DNA of 64,000 bases. Source: Escherichia phage EJP2. Position 1 is the first letter of the stretch. Every line of letters begins with the position of its first letter. Under the pieces are notes generated by a model, which saw only the letters and a list, made by a program, of their open reading frames with translations, had not been told where the DNA came from and searched no databases. The position numbers and the translations under genes are program-made. The stretch lies in the sequence record OQ411014.1; one strand, 5' to 3'. Below are positions 1,442 to 9,742 of the stretch, piece by piece.

Positions 1442-2071
1442 ATGACAACTCACGTTAGGTATTATATTGCATATAATGGAAGACCAGTTCGTTCTATTGG
1501 ATTAGATCTTGAGCCAGTAATGTCTGTACAGACTAATCTATACTTCAGTACTGAAGAAGAAGCAGACTCTTTCATTATGACTAGGATTGCAACTGCGTCC
1601 ACTACACTTTATCATATTCATTTTGATTGTATTGATAAGTACTCAATCGTCAAAGAAATTGTTCAGTTGGAACCGTGCAGTACTAAAACTAATTATATGC
1701 GAAACTATACTCTAACTTGGTTGCGATTACTCGACCAGGATATCTGTACTGATTCTATGATTTCCACTACTATACGTGCGTTCGTCATGCGTGGGTTTAG
1801 TACATCAGGATTGGATTTAGAAGAAGTGAAAAACTTGATTTTGGGTAATCCAAAACTTCAAAAAACCATTGACAAACTTATTCCAAAGCATATAATCTCT
1901 AATATTGAAAATTACATGCAAGATGGTTTAGTCAATGCTCCGGTGGAAGAGCTTGAATTCTTGAATCTAACAATTTCAGATGAAATGAAATTTGATCTTG
2001 ACTTCGAAGAACTCTTCCCTTACAATAAGTTCAAACCAACAAAATGGGAAAATCATGGAACTAGTAACTGA
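1442..2071 (+). CDS. hypothetical protein
   Basis: 209-aa ORF. No recognisable motifs. Confidence 0.6.
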   Translation: MTTHVRYYIAYNGRPVRSIGLDLEPVMSVQTNLYFSTEEEADSFIMTRIATASTTLYHIHFDCIDKYSIVKEIVQLEPCSTKTNYMRNYTLTWLRLLDQDICTDSMISTTIRAFVMRGFSTSGLDLEEVKNLILGNPKLQKTIDKLIPKHIISNIENYMQDGLVNAPVEELEFLNLTISDEMKFDLDFEELFPYNKFKPTKWENHGTSN

Positions 2072-4279: not shown

Positions 4280-5200
4280 GTGCATAAAGCGATACAAGAA
4301 CTCAAAACTCGTACTAAGGTTGTTCTATTAGTAAGTTTTCTGTTGCTTGCCGCTGCTATTGGATTATATGGTTTATATCAAAATGATCGTACTACATCAT
4401 CGGGTTCAGAAGAATCAGTAGTACAAAATCAAATTCAAAAGCAACCAGTTACAACGTTACCAATGCAAAAGGCAACAGTACTGGAAAGCAGGAAGCAATA
4501 CGTAGTGCAAGCAGGTGATAGTTATTGGATCATCACTAATAAGATGAAACCTAATAACGTTGAACCACTTGAGTATATGGCAGTACTGAAGAAAGTGAAT
4601 AACAATGTTCAGTTACACACTGCTGTACCAATCTACGTGCCGAATGACAATGATTTGATGCATGTTACATTACCAGATGTGGTTGTCAAATTTGACGTAT
4701 ACGACGATATTGTCGTAAACCACATCAAGGAAGCAGAAGGTTCGAAGGAAGCACAGTCTAATAACAAGAGACGTCTTCTGGGTGGTAAAGTAGGTCCGTC
4801 ATTTAGTAAAAATCGTTTCTATCCTTACAAGGACACGAAAGGAAATTATACTATTGGGTACGGTCATTATATTGGTCCCAAAGAGTCCGAAGCGAGAAAG
4901 TATCGTTTTGGGTTGACCGAACGTGAAGCACACAAACTGTTGATTCAGGATATGAAAAAGACTCGTGAAGATTTCATATTGTTGCTGAAGCGTAAAAATG
5001 CAGTGAATCTAAGTGTTGAACAGCAACGTGTTTTATACGAAATGGCATTCAACATGGGCGTTGACAAACTGAGTACATTTGGTAAACTATGGAAAAGTGT
5101 AGAACGTCAAAATGAAAAGAAGTTCAAAAAAGAAATTGAGAACTCATTGTGGTACAGACAAGTAGGCAACCGTGCTGAAATGTTACTGAGTTCTCTATAA
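4280..5200 (+). CDS. membrane-anchored LysM plus T4-lysozyme-like (GH24) muramidase
   Basis: GTG start with AGGAGG RBS. N-terminal TM helix VVLLVSFLLLAAAIGLYGLY, LysM-like YVVQAGDSYWII, and C-terminal YKDTKGNYTIGYGH...SLWYRQVGNRAEML matching the T4 lysozyme core. Confidence 0.7.
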   Translation: MHKAIQELKTRTKVVLLVSFLLLAAAIGLYGLYQNDRTTSSGSEESVVQNQIQKQPVTTLPMQKATVLESRKQYVVQAGDSYWIITNKMKPNNVEPLEYMAVLKKVNNNVQLHTAVPIYVPNDNDLMHVTLPDVVVKFDVYDDIVVNHIKEAEGSKEAQSNNKRRLLGGKVGPSFSKNRFYPYKDTKGNYTIGYGHYIGPKESEARKYRFGLTEREAHKLLIQDMKKTREDFILLLKRKNAVNLSVEQQRVLYEMAFNMGVDKLSTFGKLWKSVERQNEKKFKKEIENSLWYRQVGNRAEMLLSSL

Positions 5201-5216
5201 CAGAGAGGTGTTATAT

Positions 5217-5549
5217 ATGCTAAATGTAAACGTTCAAGGTAATGTAGAAATCACTGACGCAATTCATGAACATATTCTGGCTGAAGCGGATCATCTAGAA
5301 AAGTACAGTACTGATAAAGTACTGGAACTTGATGTTCACGTGAAAAAAGAACACAAAACTCAATACACTGTAACAATCGTTGGTAACGGCAAATCCAGTA
5401 CTGCCAACGCTGCTGATTTATACAAAGCAATCACTGACTCCTTTGGTAAAATGGATAAAGTGCTTGGTAAAGATAAGAGTGTAAAAATCAGTCGCCGTAA
5501 CAATCCTGTTCATCCTGTTGAAATTGACTTGACAGAAGACGAAGAGTAA
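5217..5549 (+). CDS. hpf: ribosome hibernation promoting factor / RaiA (YfiA) homolog
   Basis: NVEITDAIHEHILAEADHLEKY...DLYKAITDSFGKMDKVLGKDK aligns along its length with the bacterial HPF/YfiA family. ATG at 5217 with AGAGAGGTG RBS. Confidence 0.75.
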   Translation: MLNVNVQGNVEITDAIHEHILAEADHLEKYSTDKVLELDVHVKKEHKTQYTVTIVGNGKSSTANAADLYKAITDSFGKMDKVLGKDKSVKISRRNNPVHPVEIDLTEDEE

Positions 5550-5561
5550 TACATAATACAA

Positions 5562-5586
5562 GGAAGCCATATGGCTTCCTTTTTTA
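5562..5586 (+). terminator. rho-independent terminator
   Basis: Hairpin GGAAGCCATATGGCTTCC followed by a T-run. Confidence 0.6.
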
Positions 5587-5590
5587 ATAT

Positions 5591-6139
5591 ATGGAGAACA
5601 CAATGAGTGAATTTACAAAGGTAATCAATAAGGTTCGTAGTTTCACTGCTGAAGATTGGCACAGAACCAAACATGGCTCGTGGGAATCTTTTGACAAATA
5701 TAGTTTTCGTTCAGCAGATTATGAAATTATGTCCGAAGATATGGAAGATTTTGTTCTAGGTGATAGTACTCCATATCGTGAAGTACTCCCACTAATCGGT
5801 CATGTTGTTTGGCACGCTGAAGAGATGTCATATAGTAAAGATCTGCACTCAATTCAAATTATTGTTGGGTCTTCTAAAAGGAAAGGTGATATCACACTAT
5901 ATGTGCGTAAAGATTTGGTGTATCTGGTAAATGACACATTACGATACACGGAAAATCCCGAAGACTGCCCTACAGAATCGCAGTACTTCCAAATCTTACT
6001 TGAACAACCTGAATTTCCTGACATGTCCTACGATGAGTTCAAATCTTTGTTCACACTGTATGATCATTTGAACGAGGTAATCACAAAAGGTAAAACAATG
6101 ACATTTGCTGGGAGTAGATATCATGATTACAATGCTTGA
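5591..6139 (+). CDS. hypothetical protein
   Basis: 182-aa ORF (alternative start at 5603). Follows the terminator at 5562-5586. Confidence 0.55.
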   Translation: MENTMSEFTKVINKVRSFTAEDWHRTKHGSWESFDKYSFRSADYEIMSEDMEDFVLGDSTPYREVLPLIGHVVWHAEEMSYSKDLHSIQIIVGSSKRKGDITLYVRKDLVYLVNDTLRYTENPEDCPTESQYFQILLEQPEFPDMSYDEFKSLFTLYDHLNEVITKGKTMTFAGSRYHDYNA

Positions 6140-6242
6140 AGAAGACTGGGGCGTAGGTGGGGATTACAATCCATTTGAACCTGAAGAAAAAGAAGAGTCC
6201 CCATCGTGGTGGGATTGGGTTCGTGGATTATTCGGGCGATAA

Positions 6243-6657
6243 TATGAAAATAGAACCTGAACGCATTGCTAAACTAAAACAACTCATGGAACATACGTTA
6301 GAACTTCCACGAGAAAATCTAACATCATTCACAACCAAACCTTGGTGTACAGGTTGGTGGGTTAGTGATTATGTTTATGCTGATTATGACCACAACGAGC
6401 TAATGATTTGTGTACTGAAAAGTGACGTGGTGTGGGGACAGACTGGTAAGTTATACATAAGTTCAAATCACGTTCAATTGATAAAAACTGCACCACCGTT
6501 TACACTTAGCGTTCCGAGAATCAGTACTGAAGAAGAGTATTTTCAACAGTCAACACTTCATGATTTGACAAATTTGGACTTGGATTTCTTTTTGACTTGT
6601 AATAAACTCTATTCACTATGTTGCAGTTTACACACGATTGGGGATACAGATGTATAG
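6243..6657 (+). CDS. paralog-family protein 1 (conserved STEEE-YFQ-LHDL-LDLDFF C-terminus)
   Basis: First of four tandem paralogs. C-terminal ISTEEEYFQQSTLHDLTNLDLDFFL. Start set at ATG 6243 by alignment with paralog N-termini. Confidence 0.55.
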
Positions 6658-7042
6658 TCGTATGCTAAAAGAACTGAATGAACTTCTGGTGAATGTATTG
6701 GGATGGCCTGCTGATAATTACAGATACATCAGAGAACGTGATTTAGGAACCATCAGAGATTGCTGGGTGAATAAATTCACATTCGCAGAAGATAATTGTG
6801 GTGATGTTTCGGTATCTTTGTCTAAATGTTCGGATATTGATTTTTGTTACATCAAGATATTGGAAGATGCAGTGGAGTTCCGAAAAGGATTGTCTACGAT
6901 TTGGAGTTACCCACGATTGAGTACTGAAGAAGAGTTTTTTCAATTATCAGTACTGCATGATACATCTGGCTTGGATTTGGACTTCTTTTTGAATTGCACT
7001 AAACTATACAACCTGGGCAAAATTGCACTAATAGAGGGATAA
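6650..7042 (+). CDS. paralog-family protein 2
   Basis: C-terminal LSTEEEFFQLSVLHDTSGLDLDFFL. ATG at 6650 with GGGGA RBS. Overlaps the upstream stop. Confidence 0.55.
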   Translation: MYSRMLKELNELLVNVLGWPADNYRYIRERDLGTIRDCWVNKFTFAEDNCGDVSVSLSKCSDIDFCYIKILEDAVEFRKGLSTIWSYPRLSTEEEFFQLSVLHDTSGLDLDFFLNCTKLYNLGKIALIEG

Positions 7043-7043
7043 C

Positions 7044-7454
7044 ATGGCTATGAATCCAAATAAAGTAGTACAGCTAAGAGATTTACTACCGTACATTTTA
7101 GAACTTCCTGAGAAAGCACATAAACGATTGTCCTTCCGATATGAAGTTGGTGGTGGGTGGATCAATGACTTTGTGAATGTATTTTTCATCAATGACAAGC
7201 TCACAGTTTCCGTGACTGCTGATGTGGAGTTTAAAACTGGTTACTTCACTATAAGCGAAAATACAGTTGAATATTACACTTCCAATAAAGGTGGTGCGAA
7301 ACCGGAAATAACGTACAAACTTGTCAGTACTGAAGAAGAGCATTTCCAGGAGTCACTAATTCATGATTTAACACTTTTAGATCTGGACTTCTTCCTGAAC
7401 TGTGCTAAAATATACGCACTATGTGATGATTTGATCACGATTGATTATTATTGA
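7044..7454 (+). CDS. paralog-family protein 3
   Basis: C-terminal VSTEEEHFQESLIHDLTLLDLDFFL. GAGGGA RBS. Confidence 0.6.
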   Translation: MAMNPNKVVQLRDLLPYILELPEKAHKRLSFRYEVGGGWINDFVNVFFINDKLTVSVTADVEFKTGYFTISENTVEYYTSNKGGAKPEITYKLVSTEEEHFQESLIHDLTLLDLDFFLNCAKIYALCDDLITIDYY

Positions 7455-7462
7455 GGATTATA

Positions 7463-7864
7463 ATGTACAATAGTGTAATGATGCAGCATTTCACTACAAT
7501 GATTGGTGCTGCCATGAATAGTCCTAAACTGAAAACGTTACGCATCATTGATGGTGCGTGCTGGATTACAGAAAATGCTTTTATCTGGATGCATGAGAGT
7601 CGTGATAAATTAACTATCACAATAAAGCCATCATTTAGTTTAGAAGAGATACTACAACATAGTAGTATTGATATCAAACATGATAGTATAGATATTCGTA
7701 ACTCCCATAACCCAAAAGGTATTAATATCCCACGTATTAGTACTGAAGAAGAGTACTTTCAACAAAGTACTATTCATGATTTATCAAATTTCAACCTTGA
7801 TTTTTTCAAACAATGTGCAGTACTGTTCGATAAAACATGGGATCAACTTACATGGTGTAAGTAG
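7463..7864 (+). CDS. paralog-family protein 4
   Basis: C-terminal ISTEEEYFQQSTIHDLSNFNLDFF. ATG at 7463 with GAGGA RBS. Confidence 0.55.
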   Translation: MYNSVMMQHFTTMIGAAMNSPKLKTLRIIDGACWITENAFIWMHESRDKLTITIKPSFSLEEILQHSSIDIKHDSIDIRNSHNPKGINIPRISTEEEYFQQSTIHDLSNFNLDFFKQCAVLFDKTWDQLTWCK

Positions 7865-7891
7865 TATTTTACATTATTATGAGGAACTAAA

Positions 7892-9001
7892 ATGAAAAAG
7901 TATTTGGTTGGTGGTTTTGTACGCGATAAGCTACTTGGCTTACGTCCTAAAGACAAAGATTATGTCTTGGTAGGAGCGACCCCGCGTGATATTCAGTACT
8001 TAAAAAGTATTGGATATGAGCAGGTTGGTGCAGACTTCCCTGTGTTCTTGGATAAGGACGGCAATGAGCACGCACTTGCCCGTACTGAACGCAAGGTGTC
8101 TGATGGCTATAATGGCTTTGAAGTGAATACACAAGGTGTAACGCTTCAGGAAGACTTGTATCGTCGTGATTTGACCATCAATGCGATTGCCTTTGACCCA
8201 CAGTTAAAGGTACACGTAGACCCATATGGTGGCAAAGAAGACCTAAAGAACAAAGTACTGCGACATGTATCTGAACATTTTGAAGAAGATCCAGTACGTA
8301 TTCTGCGTATCGCTCGTTTCAGTGCACGTTATTCGGACTTTACAGTACATGAAAGTACTGAATCGTTGATTCGCCGTATGATCAATCGTGGCGATATTTC
8401 TGAATTGACTAAAGAGCGAGTGTACGTAGAATTCGAGAAAGCATTCTCCGAAGAAGAGCCAGTTATCTTCCTGGAGAAGCTATCCAAATGGGGAGCCATG
8501 AGTAAGTTGATTCCTGGTAATCCTGAAAGTACTTACAAGACTATTGAATACATTAGTTCCAATTGTACTTTAGCGTATAAGGATTTTTACTTGTGGGCTG
8601 AACTAATTGGTTCTAATGAAGTACAAAAAGATGGAGTCTTTGGTCAGGTCAAGCTACCATCGCGTTACTCTAAGTTCAGTGCGTATGTATGCAAGCACGC
8701 GGATAGTATCAAGAATTTCCGTAAGAGCACCCCAGAAGAAATGGTAAATATTCTTACTGAGATGAGCGTAAAGAACAACGGTGGTGAAGAGTACTTGTAC
8801 AAAGTACTGGAATACTTTATCCTACGTAAAGAGATTGATTTGGACTTAGAAGATTTGATTATTCGAGTTTATGATCGCTTTGAGAATACGGTCATTGGTA
8901 ATATTGATCAGATGCTTAAAGATGGAACTATCACTTCACGTGAAATTCCTTCTTTTGTGAAAGAGAAGCGAATCGCTGAGGTGGAAAAAATCTTCAAATA
9001 A
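7892..9001 (+). CDS. cca: CCA-adding tRNA nucleotidyltransferase (class II head domain, no HD domain)
   Basis: N-terminal LVGGFVRDKLLG...DKDYVLVGATP...GADFPVFL...ALARTERK...RRDLTINAIA closely matches bacterial CCA-adding enzymes. At 369 aa it lacks the C-terminal HD domain. Confidence 0.9.
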   Translation: MKKYLVGGFVRDKLLGLRPKDKDYVLVGATPRDIQYLKSIGYEQVGADFPVFLDKDGNEHALARTERKVSDGYNGFEVNTQGVTLQEDLYRRDLTINAIAFDPQLKVHVDPYGGKEDLKNKVLRHVSEHFEEDPVRILRIARFSARYSDFTVHESTESLIRRMINRGDISELTKERVYVEFEKAFSEEEPVIFLEKLSKWGAMSKLIPGNPESTYKTIEYISSNCTLAYKDFYLWAELIGSNEVQKDGVFGQVKLPSRYSKFSAYVCKHADSIKNFRKSTPEEMVNILTEMSVKNNGGEEYLYKVLEYFILRKEIDLDLEDLIIRVYDRFENTVIGNIDQMLKDGTITSREIPSFVKEKRIAEVEKIFK

Positions 9002-9002
9002 A

Positions 9003-9032
9003 TTGAGATATTTTCGAAAAAAGTGATATATT
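9003..9032 (+). promoter_or_regulatory. early promoter (TTGAGA -35, TGn TATATT)
   Basis: TTGAGA 9003-9008, TG 9024-9025, TATATT 9027-9032. Confidence 0.45.
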
Positions 9033-9064
9033 ATAAGTATCTGAGATATGTAAGAGATAAAAAT

Positions 9065-9742
9065 ATGCGATATACATGCGGGATAATATTTTATCGAAAC
9101 GGTCAGATACTTGTAGGTCACACGACTGGTCAGAGTCATTGGGATTTACCGAAAGGTAAGACTGAAGGTTCTGAGACATTCAAGGAAGCGGCAGTTCGTG
9201 AATGCTATGAAGAAACTGGATACAGTATTGATGAACGAGATTTACTGTACTTAGGTGATGTATCATACAGAAAGGGAAAGCGTTTAGTACTGTTCTTTTA
9301 CACAGCCAAGACGAAACCAATTGCTGAAGAGTTGCAATGTATCAGTACTTACACGAATAAGTACGGTATTGTACGTCCAGAGTTGGACAAATTCAAGTAC
9401 ATAGACATTGAGGACTGTGAACTCTACTTGACTGAACGGATGTGTGATAGTATAATCAAAGCTATTACACAATTTGATAAAAAGACAAATAAAAAGGAAG
9501 ATAATATGAAAGTTGTAATTTATGGTCGTAAAGCTGGTTGTAAGTGGTGTACTACTGCTAAAGAAGTTTGTGAAACTAACTCAATTGATTTTGATTTCAT
9601 TGATTTAGATGAAGCTGGTATTGATGGTGCTAAACTCGCTGAAATTTGTGGCACTCCAGTACGTACTGTTCCACAAATTTTCGTTGACGATCAACACATT
9701 GGTGGTTGTACTGAGTTTATTTCGCACCTATCCAAAATGTAA
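9065..9742 (+). CDS. Nudix hydrolase joined in-frame to a glutaredoxin-like domain
   Basis: Complete Nudix box GKTEGSETFKEAAVRECYEETGY. C-terminal 78 aa is glutaredoxin/NrdH-like (CKWC, TVPQIFVDDQHIGG) and has its own internal ATG at 9506 with an AAGGAAG RBS, but no stop separates the two domains. Confidence 0.7.
   Translation: MRYTCGIIFYRNGQILVGHTTGQSHWDLPKGKTEGSETFKEAAVRECYEETGYSIDERDLLYLGDVSYRKGKRLVLFFYTAKTKPIAEELQCISTYTNKYGIVRPELDKFKYIDIEDCELYLTERMCDSIIKAITQFDKKTNKKEDNMKVVIYGRKAGCKWCTTAKEVCETNSIDFDFIDLDEAGIDGAKLAEICGTPVRTVPQIFVDDQHIGGCTEFISHLSKM

Follow-up and report, generated by a model that had tools for sequence, protein, structure and literature searches.

A locus of Escherichia phage EJP2 (sequence record OQ411014.1) raises the question of what four small adjacent genes are, whose products share one C-terminal block, and what such an array may do for the phage. 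The window analysed here is a stretch of 64,000 nucleotides (nt) from this record, and coordinates refer to it unless another sequence is named. An earlier note on the window, made from its letters alone, had described four consecutive small open reading frames (ORFs) at 6243-7864 as a tandem array of paralogues, typical of rapidly evolving host-interaction or anti-defence families. The ORF listing and a direct reading of the starts recovered these four ORFs, all on the + strand, which we refer to as w1 to w4. The end of the span at 7864 is correct; its start was placed one base too early, as w1 begins at 6244.

6244-6657, + strand: w1, 137 aa, family member
6650-7042, + strand: w2, 130 aa, family member; its first 8 nt overlap the end of w1
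7044-7454, + strand: w3, 136 aa, family member
7463-7864, + strand: w4, 133 aa, family member

We found that w1 to w4 are four intact paralogous genes of a small phage-only superfamily, with a probable fifth member (w0) upstream. Even the most distant pair, w1 and w4, aligns by BLASTP at E = 6e-18, which is far beyond chance and bears out the proposed paralogy. Pairwise identity among the four proteins is 53-69% across the 36 residues from STEEE and 19-32% ahead of it, and synonymous sites among the paralogues are saturated (19-32% identity outside the motif). The possibility that they are fragments of one disrupted gene, or a product of chance or assembly, is refuted and retains next to no probability. 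Every copy has its own start and stop and covers the predicted fold completely and its homologues from end to end, and the same four genes are intact in two independent assemblies of near-identical relatives, ENA ERZ794978 (L003; 99.8% identical across 9.5 kb) and Logan SRR10386367 (L008; 98.8% identical, mosaic). They are therefore separate, complete genes, as the note had assumed. The genes abut or overlap; w1 starts one base past the stop of a preceding 39-aa ORF, and Shine-Dalgarno (SD) sequences (GGGGA, GAGGGA or GAGGA) precede w2, w3, and w4. The encoded proteins are only mildly acidic (pI 4.7-6.0), and their N-termini, judged by eye, have no obvious signal peptide or membrane segment.

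The C-terminal pattern reported at the outset, (I/L/V)STEEE(Y/F/H)FQxSxxHD...(D/N)LDFF, fits all four proteins. The LELP segment said to be common to their N-termini is restricted to w1 and w3; w2 has LGWP and w4 has MNSP, leaving the proline as the sole shared residue. To speak of conserved ends was an overstatement, as only the C-terminal helix region is conserved. Modeling of w1 with AlphaFold2 from a 74-sequence alignment (predicted local distance difference test, pLDDT, 85.2; predicted template-modeling score, pTM, 0.81) returned, in order, helix A at residues 5-20, a beta-meander of antiparallel strands (the main ones at 44-49, 52-58, 68-72, 76-81, and 86-91), helix B (96-105), and helix C (113-135). 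The elements follow in the same order in the AlphaFold2 model of w4 (pLDDT 74.7), which has seven strands. The family protein is predicted to be a soluble, mildly acidic domain of ~135 aa, in which a helix at the N-terminus is followed by an antiparallel beta-meander of 5-7 strands and by two helices at the C-terminus. The signature [ST]-E-E-E-[YF]-F-Q-x-S-[LT]-[LI] is predicted to form the N-cap (S-T) and body of helix B, and [DN]LDFF to open helix C. Per residue, helix A and the sheet contain 0.5-1.0 bits of information, compared with 3.2 bits in helix B. In 74 sequences that are otherwise 14-36% identical, F-Q never varies, and the first Glu and the Ser almost never do. Helix B is conserved on both of its faces and so may be packed between the sheet and a second surface.

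A fold search of the PDB gave no strong hit. There is a weak fold resemblance to p32/gC1qBP/MAM33 (1p32, 1yqf, 3qv0, 3jv1) and to trypanosome mitoribosome assembly factors; the other candidates were Polo-box (beta6-alpha) domains of PLK1/2/4, Cdc5, and KKT3, and the rest were generic beta-meanders. At the sequence level nothing links the proteins to the MAM33/p32 family (PF02330): there is no Pfam match, and hhalign of human p32 (query sequence checked against 1p32_A) with the 74-sequence profile yielded E = 0.4 over one aligned column. Proteins of the p32 type are built of helix A, seven antiparallel strands, helix B, and helix C and assemble into a doughnut-shaped homotrimer that has one strongly acidic face, whereas the pI of the window proteins is only mildly acidic. 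Membership among the Polo-box domains (PF00659), which are attached to Polo-like kinases, was rejected. We treat the p32-type matches as an architectural resemblance, not as membership.

Judged from its sequence, the window derives from the genome of a RaK2/PBECO4-group (Asteriusvirus/Alcyoneusvirus-like) jumbo phage. When 5500-8000 was compared at the nucleotide level with 50,697 phage records, a collection to which EJP2 itself does not belong, there were zero matches. The CCA-adding enzyme next to the array shares 76% identity with its counterpart in Erwinia phage Hallingskeid (366 kb; L001) and 62% with those of coliphages resembling PBECO4 (L002). The order lysozyme, HPF, array, CCA-adding enzyme, and Nudix is common to the window, Hallingskeid, PBECO4, and phAPEC6. 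The genes around w1 to w4 are the following.

4280-5200: LysM-lysozyme, upstream of HPF
5208-5549, + strand: HPF/RaiA ribosome hibernation factor (Pfam E = 1.7e-12)
5603-6139, + strand: w0, 178 aa from the ATG at 5603, with GGAG ahead; another in-frame ATG lies upstream at 5591
6123-6242, + strand: 39-aa ORF, acidic and Trp-rich (MITMLEEDWGV...WWDWVRGLFGR), not a family member
7892-9001: CCA-adding enzyme, directly downstream of the array
9023-9742, + strand: Nudix-glutaredoxin, a single fused ORF

HPF, an RNA ligase, the CCA-adding enzyme, Nudix-glutaredoxin, and a macro-domain gene jointly constitute an RNA-repair/translation-control module. Nudix and glutaredoxin are fused in the window, L003, L008, and Hallingskeid, and are two genes in PBECO4 and phAPEC6. 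No Rfam families or tRNAs were found in the window.

The slot between HPF and the CCA-adding enzyme is occupied by motif-bearing genes of ~120-140 aa in Hallingskeid, PBECO4, and phAPEC6 as well, and copy number differs: by family profile there are 4 plus 1 members in the window, 5 in Hallingskeid, and 2 in PBECO4/phAPEC6. The last Hallingskeid gene before the CCA-adding enzyme (L001 4755-5201, 148 aa) has a degenerate motif, TNERDYHNYGELEHFIDYKLY, that the family profile missed, and may be a member in decay. In the same phage, the gene at L001 3986-4387 is the orthologue of w4 (tblastn 42% identity, E = 3e-15). A rough neighbour-joining tree places w1 to w3 together, w4 with this orthologue, and w0 loosely with the first Hallingskeid gene, which suggests that w1 to w3 arose by a lineage-specific triplication. 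The array shows a birth-and-death pattern of evolution. With tandem paralogues, variable copy number, and restriction to one clade, it is a lineage-specific multigene family in a plastic jumbo-phage region.

The array probably extends upstream to w0, a highly divergent fifth member. It is hit by two family profiles at hmmsearch E = 0.002 and 0.0066 and is recruited into the family when the profile is iterated with members from other phages; hhalign puts its stretch TESQYFQ...MSYDEF onto the motif at an E of only 0.029. The first gene past HPF, which is the w0 position, bears the motif in Hallingskeid and PBECO4 too. Among 5.8 billion proteins the only w0 homologue is its own orthologue, so that no w0 profile could be built and its membership stays probable. 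The iterated profile found no further member elsewhere in the 64-kb window. The 39-aa ORF has homologues in this slot in both Hallingskeid (L001 3867-3986) and PBECO4 (L002 4877-4999) and is thus kept in three phage lineages, its place within the array differing; relative to L008 it shows 7 synonymous and 0 nonsynonymous differences. Its product could be a partner of the family proteins.

Beyond the slot, a word-indexed search of the 5.8 billion proteins yielded 22 clusters at 90% identity, all unnamed metagenome proteins, and an exhaustive HMMER search of 1.84 billion representatives yielded 61 clusters (50% identity) at E <= 1e-3, mostly of 114-167 aa. The family was seen only in phage and metagenome sequence: a pattern scan of 185,579 species genomes found no prokaryotic relatives, and Foldseek against the BFVD viral models matched only uncharacterised proteins of GAP32, RaK2, CBB, and pEa_SNUABM_47. 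The superfamily is confined to RaK2/PBECO4-like jumbo phages. Other jumbo-phage loci, on IMG/VR contigs, carry 2-8 members per 12 kb and have neither HPF nor the CCA-adding enzyme; the same two genes are missing from the RaK2 locus, which has 7 members in the 16 kb examined. Single members are recognisable by BLAST only inside one phage genus, the PBECO4 copy being found in 35 Escherichia and Salmonella phages and a RaK2 copy in 9 Klebsiella phages. All annotated copies are labelled hypothetical protein, and a few records have no annotation there.

Searches for a functional assignment were negative. The window proteins have no Pfam hit at E <= 1, and the 61 members have no match to a Pfam family at E <= 0.01; NCBIfam and PDB-sequence searches, run with single proteins and with the profile, gave nothing meaningful, and the sole PADLOC-DB hit, Cas13a against w2 (E = 0.02), was taken as chance. 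A PHROGs scan spread the 61 members over 18 PHROGs (phrog_21500, 24941, 17453, 12674, 24321, 13866, and 12 more), all labelled unknown function. Thirteen of the 61 match phrog_21500, a profile of 149 positions (best E = 1e-25). This profile matches w1, w3, and w4 at E = 2e-5 to 6e-7 (w4 at 6e-7) and w2 at only 0.01, in each case within the C-terminal 30-70 residues. The accessions of six homologues from related phages are cited in no paper that we found, and the passages of a jumbo-phage comparative review that a term search retrieved do not mention the family. A search for transcriptomes of Asteriusvirus brought up only unrelated papers. The superfamily, its signature helix, and its predicted fold are previously undescribed; that RaK2/CBB-type genomes are rich in paralogues was already known.

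How fast the array changes can be read from the two close relatives. Divergence from L008 at synonymous sites (pS) is 0.19 for HPF, 0.12 for w0, 0.31 for the 39-aa ORF, 0.01-0.02 for w1 to w3, 0.18 for w4, and 0.004 for the CCA-adding enzyme, and stays below 0.05 for the genes from Nudix-glutaredoxin to the tail sheath. Where pS is informative, the ratio of nonsynonymous to synonymous divergence (pN/pS) is 0.15 for w0 and 0.24 for w4, compared with 0.02 for HPF and 0.04 for the RNA ligase. The array genes are therefore under purifying selection, maintained but less tightly than their housekeeping neighbours. Relative to L003, w1 collects 7 of the 16 differences (window 6264-6639; binomial P = 2e-6), six of them nonsynonymous; polarisation with L008 assigns five of the changes to L003 as derived. 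These changes could be real, either adaptive or reflecting decay, or they could be errors. A diversity-generating retroelement was considered and rejected: the w1 changes (C>T, T>A, G>T, G>T, T>C, C>T, and T>G) are gene-wide and not adenine-specific, no search for a reverse transcriptase having been made.

Divergence from L008 includes an island at 7410-7738 that covers most of w4 and comprises 27 differences, which cause 12 amino-acid changes. The surrounding ~10 kb, from w1 to the tail sheath, is otherwise ~99.5% identical, and the next difference comes only at 7900. The edges of the island fall at a repeat: the repeat search found a 71-nt block in four copies that are 73-79% identical and spaced by 397, 406, and 413 nt, within which a 15-mer, AGTACTGAAGAAGAG, is identical in all four.

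6520-6590, + strand: w1 71-nt block, encoding I-STEEEYFQQSTLHDLTNLDLDFF, which spans the helix B cap, helix B, the loop, and the start of helix C
6917-6987, + strand: w2 71-nt block, from the repeat search
7323-7393, + strand: w3 71-nt block; the left edge of the L008 divergence island lies within it or just past it
7736-7806, + strand: w4 71-nt block; the L008 divergence island ends at 7738, one base ahead of the 15-mer

The island, which begins just past the w3 block, looks like a cassette exchange of the kind that a crossover inside the conserved blocks would give. The rapid evolution proposed earlier thus holds as fast turnover, seen in the copy number of the slot, a swapped cassette at 98.8% identity, and the changes in w1; it does not hold as measurable positive selection (pN/pS 0.15-0.24).

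The string AGTACTGAAGAAG, noted previously at the STEEE codons of each copy, is indeed present there without mismatch, at 6523, 6920, 7326, and 7739 (shuffled sequence would give 0.12 matches). It occurs a fifth time at 1547-1559 (+ strand), again exact, where it encodes STEEE in an unrelated ORF (1442-2071; ...LYFSTEEEADSF...) from which the rest of the motif is absent; we take this as coincidence. Could the conserved block be primarily an element of the DNA, such as a recombination linker or a regulatory site, with protein conservation secondary to it? Three observations point that way: the codons of AGTACTGAAGAAGAG are invariant in 5 of 5 cases, compared with 2 of 11 for the remaining codons of conserved residues there (post hoc Fisher P = 0.005); their identity at synonymous saturation has a chance of ~9e-5; and the divergence island stops one base short of the 15-mer. 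Yet Hallingskeid and PBECO4 use other codons for the same residues (ACT GAA GAG GAA, ACG GAA GAA GAA, TCG GAA GAA GAA, etc.), and the amino-acid motif is kept in all 61 clusters. Because the codons vary while the amino-acid motif holds, the constraint lies on the protein level, and we regard a DNA element as highly improbable. Shared ancestry or local gene conversion is probably the better explanation for the identical 15-mer within this phage.

Expression of the array may start from a site overlapping the end of HPF, where a promoter-like sequence is followed by a hairpin.

5529-5557, + strand: sigma-70-like promoter, candidate for the array operon (TTGACA, 17 nt, CATAAT; 11/12 consensus), its -35 in the last HPF codons
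5560-5581, + strand: GC-rich 9-bp hairpin with a U run after it, downstream of HPF and ahead of the array (fold -14.4 kcal/mol, z = -4.3)

The TTGACA-17-TAnnnT layout recurs at the equivalent site in Hallingskeid and PBECO4/phAPEC6, and hairpins of other sequence occur there too (Hallingskeid -19.4 and PBECO4 -18.0 kcal/mol; z about -4). The complete layout of promoter, hairpin, SD, and start occupies 5529-5605 in the window, 2578-2680 in L001, and 3365-3490 in L002, and is also found in phAPEC6. The hairpin looks like an intrinsic terminator of upstream transcripts. A transcript begun ~7 nt past the -10 would miss some of the 5' arm, and its fold drops to -5.8 kcal/mol (z = -0.8). Since such transcripts would start inside the 5' arm and lose the full terminator hairpin, the element may block read-through from upstream while letting its own transcripts pass. 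There is no comparably strong promoter-like site within the array, and its genes abut or overlap, so one operon is the simplest reading; we infer that it is transcribed by the host polymerase and hence early.

What these proteins may do has to be judged against several alternatives. Tentatively, we favour the possibility that they are early, non-virion protein-binding modules, diversified by duplication and cassette exchange. Under this proposal, host RNA polymerase would transcribe the array early from the sigma-70-like promoter at 5529-5557. The helix B region would be a common contact, used for self-association or for one shared partner, and the variable face of the sheet would direct each paralogue to a separate host or host-defence target. 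New variants would arise by duplication and divergence, and by cassette exchange with junctions at the conserved block. Several points weigh against this proposal. The promoter is a consensus match only, with 24 such matches in the region against 21.8 expected in shuffles; the contig with the surplus of w1 changes (L003) has ~4x coverage, so that some of them may be errors; a pN/pS below 1 gives no demonstration of diversifying selection; the cassette junctions represent a single event and are partly confounded, as conserved blocks differ little anyway; and searches of Pfam, NCBIfam, PADLOC, and PDB sequences matched no known anti-defence or host-takeover protein.

The position of the array could instead mean that its products are accessory factors of translation or tRNA repair that work with the neighbouring genes, with ribosomes, tRNAs, or host anticodon nucleases as possible binding partners. 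The array sits between HPF and the CCA-adding enzyme in three lineages, with the RNA ligase upstream and the Nudix and macro-domain genes downstream, and RaK2 has a peptidyl-tRNA-hydrolase-like gene (ORF188) inside another cluster of members. The p32/MAM33 proteins and trypanosome mitoribosome assembly factors, which the predicted fold weakly resembles, act in mitochondrial translation. However, member clusters in RaK2 and the IMG/VR jumbo phages lie at loci without HPF and the CCA-adding enzyme, hhalign finds nothing in the comparison with human p32, and the argument is one of guilt by association for proteins with no RNA-binding or nuclease motif and no Pfam hit. We consider this role unlikely, and only slightly less so the idea that the genes are largely dispensable ORFan duplicates, which persist by duplication and recombination in a plastic region and have no copy-specific targets. 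Copy number is free to vary between relatives, constraint is looser than in the neighbours, the five derived nonsynonymous changes in w1 of L003, unaccompanied by synonymous ones, would fit the decay of one copy, and ~10% of the RaK2 proteins have paralogues within that phage (PMC3622015). Dispensable duplicates are harder to reconcile with a pN/pS of 0.15-0.24 at appreciable pS, which indicates a maintained coding sequence, with copies that are all intact in three genomes, and with the invariant F-Q and near-invariant E and S of helix B across the 74 divergent sequences. Virion-associated or injected internal proteins are a far less probable explanation than either. A module of tail sheath and head-tail adaptor lies ~4-5 kb downstream of the array, and in RaK2 a gene flagged as virion structural (ORF182) neighbours a family cluster; the RaK2 members themselves are annotated as plain hypothetical, without a structural flag, and the slot homologues gp289c-gp291c of phAPEC6 were not among its 62 virion proteins identified by mass spectrometry (PMC7247149). 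The small size, solubility, and acidity of the proteins, and the lack of an obvious signal peptide or membrane segment by eye, also argue against a place in the virion.

Jumbo phages of the RaK2/PBECO4 group are isolated for therapy (E. coli, Klebsiella, Salmonella, and Erwinia), and ~80% of their genes have no known function. The superfamily joins dozens of scattered hypothetical proteins and 18 PHROGs under one signature, with a confident predicted fold and a defined variable locus, which is useful for annotation, and the array offers a small candidate gene set for screens of host range and defence evasion. If the conserved helix is a common docking element, the family would provide a compact model for how phages diversify binders. 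As a typical fast-turnover accessory multigene family, it does not overturn current understanding and would not surprise specialists.

The array is best compared with the plastic ("hyperplastic") regions of T4-like and jumbo phages and with the paralogues of RaK2 and CBB, where the same kind of small-ORFan cluster lies between core genes; the RaK2 and CBB papers only counted the paralogues and did not describe the superfamily (PMC3622015; PMC5259590). As in those regions, content and copy number vary between relatives, and the genes run in one direction, are tightly packed, and are lineage restricted. More distant parallels are found among eukaryotic viruses: for the African swine fever virus multigene families MGF110/360/505 and the poxvirus Bcl-2-like and ankyrin families, a role in host range or immune evasion is established. 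These families are unrelated in sequence and fold to the phage array, yet they likewise consist of tandem diverged paralogues with a conserved core, variable surfaces, and strain-dependent copy number. For the phage array, a host-interaction or anti-defence role is plausible.

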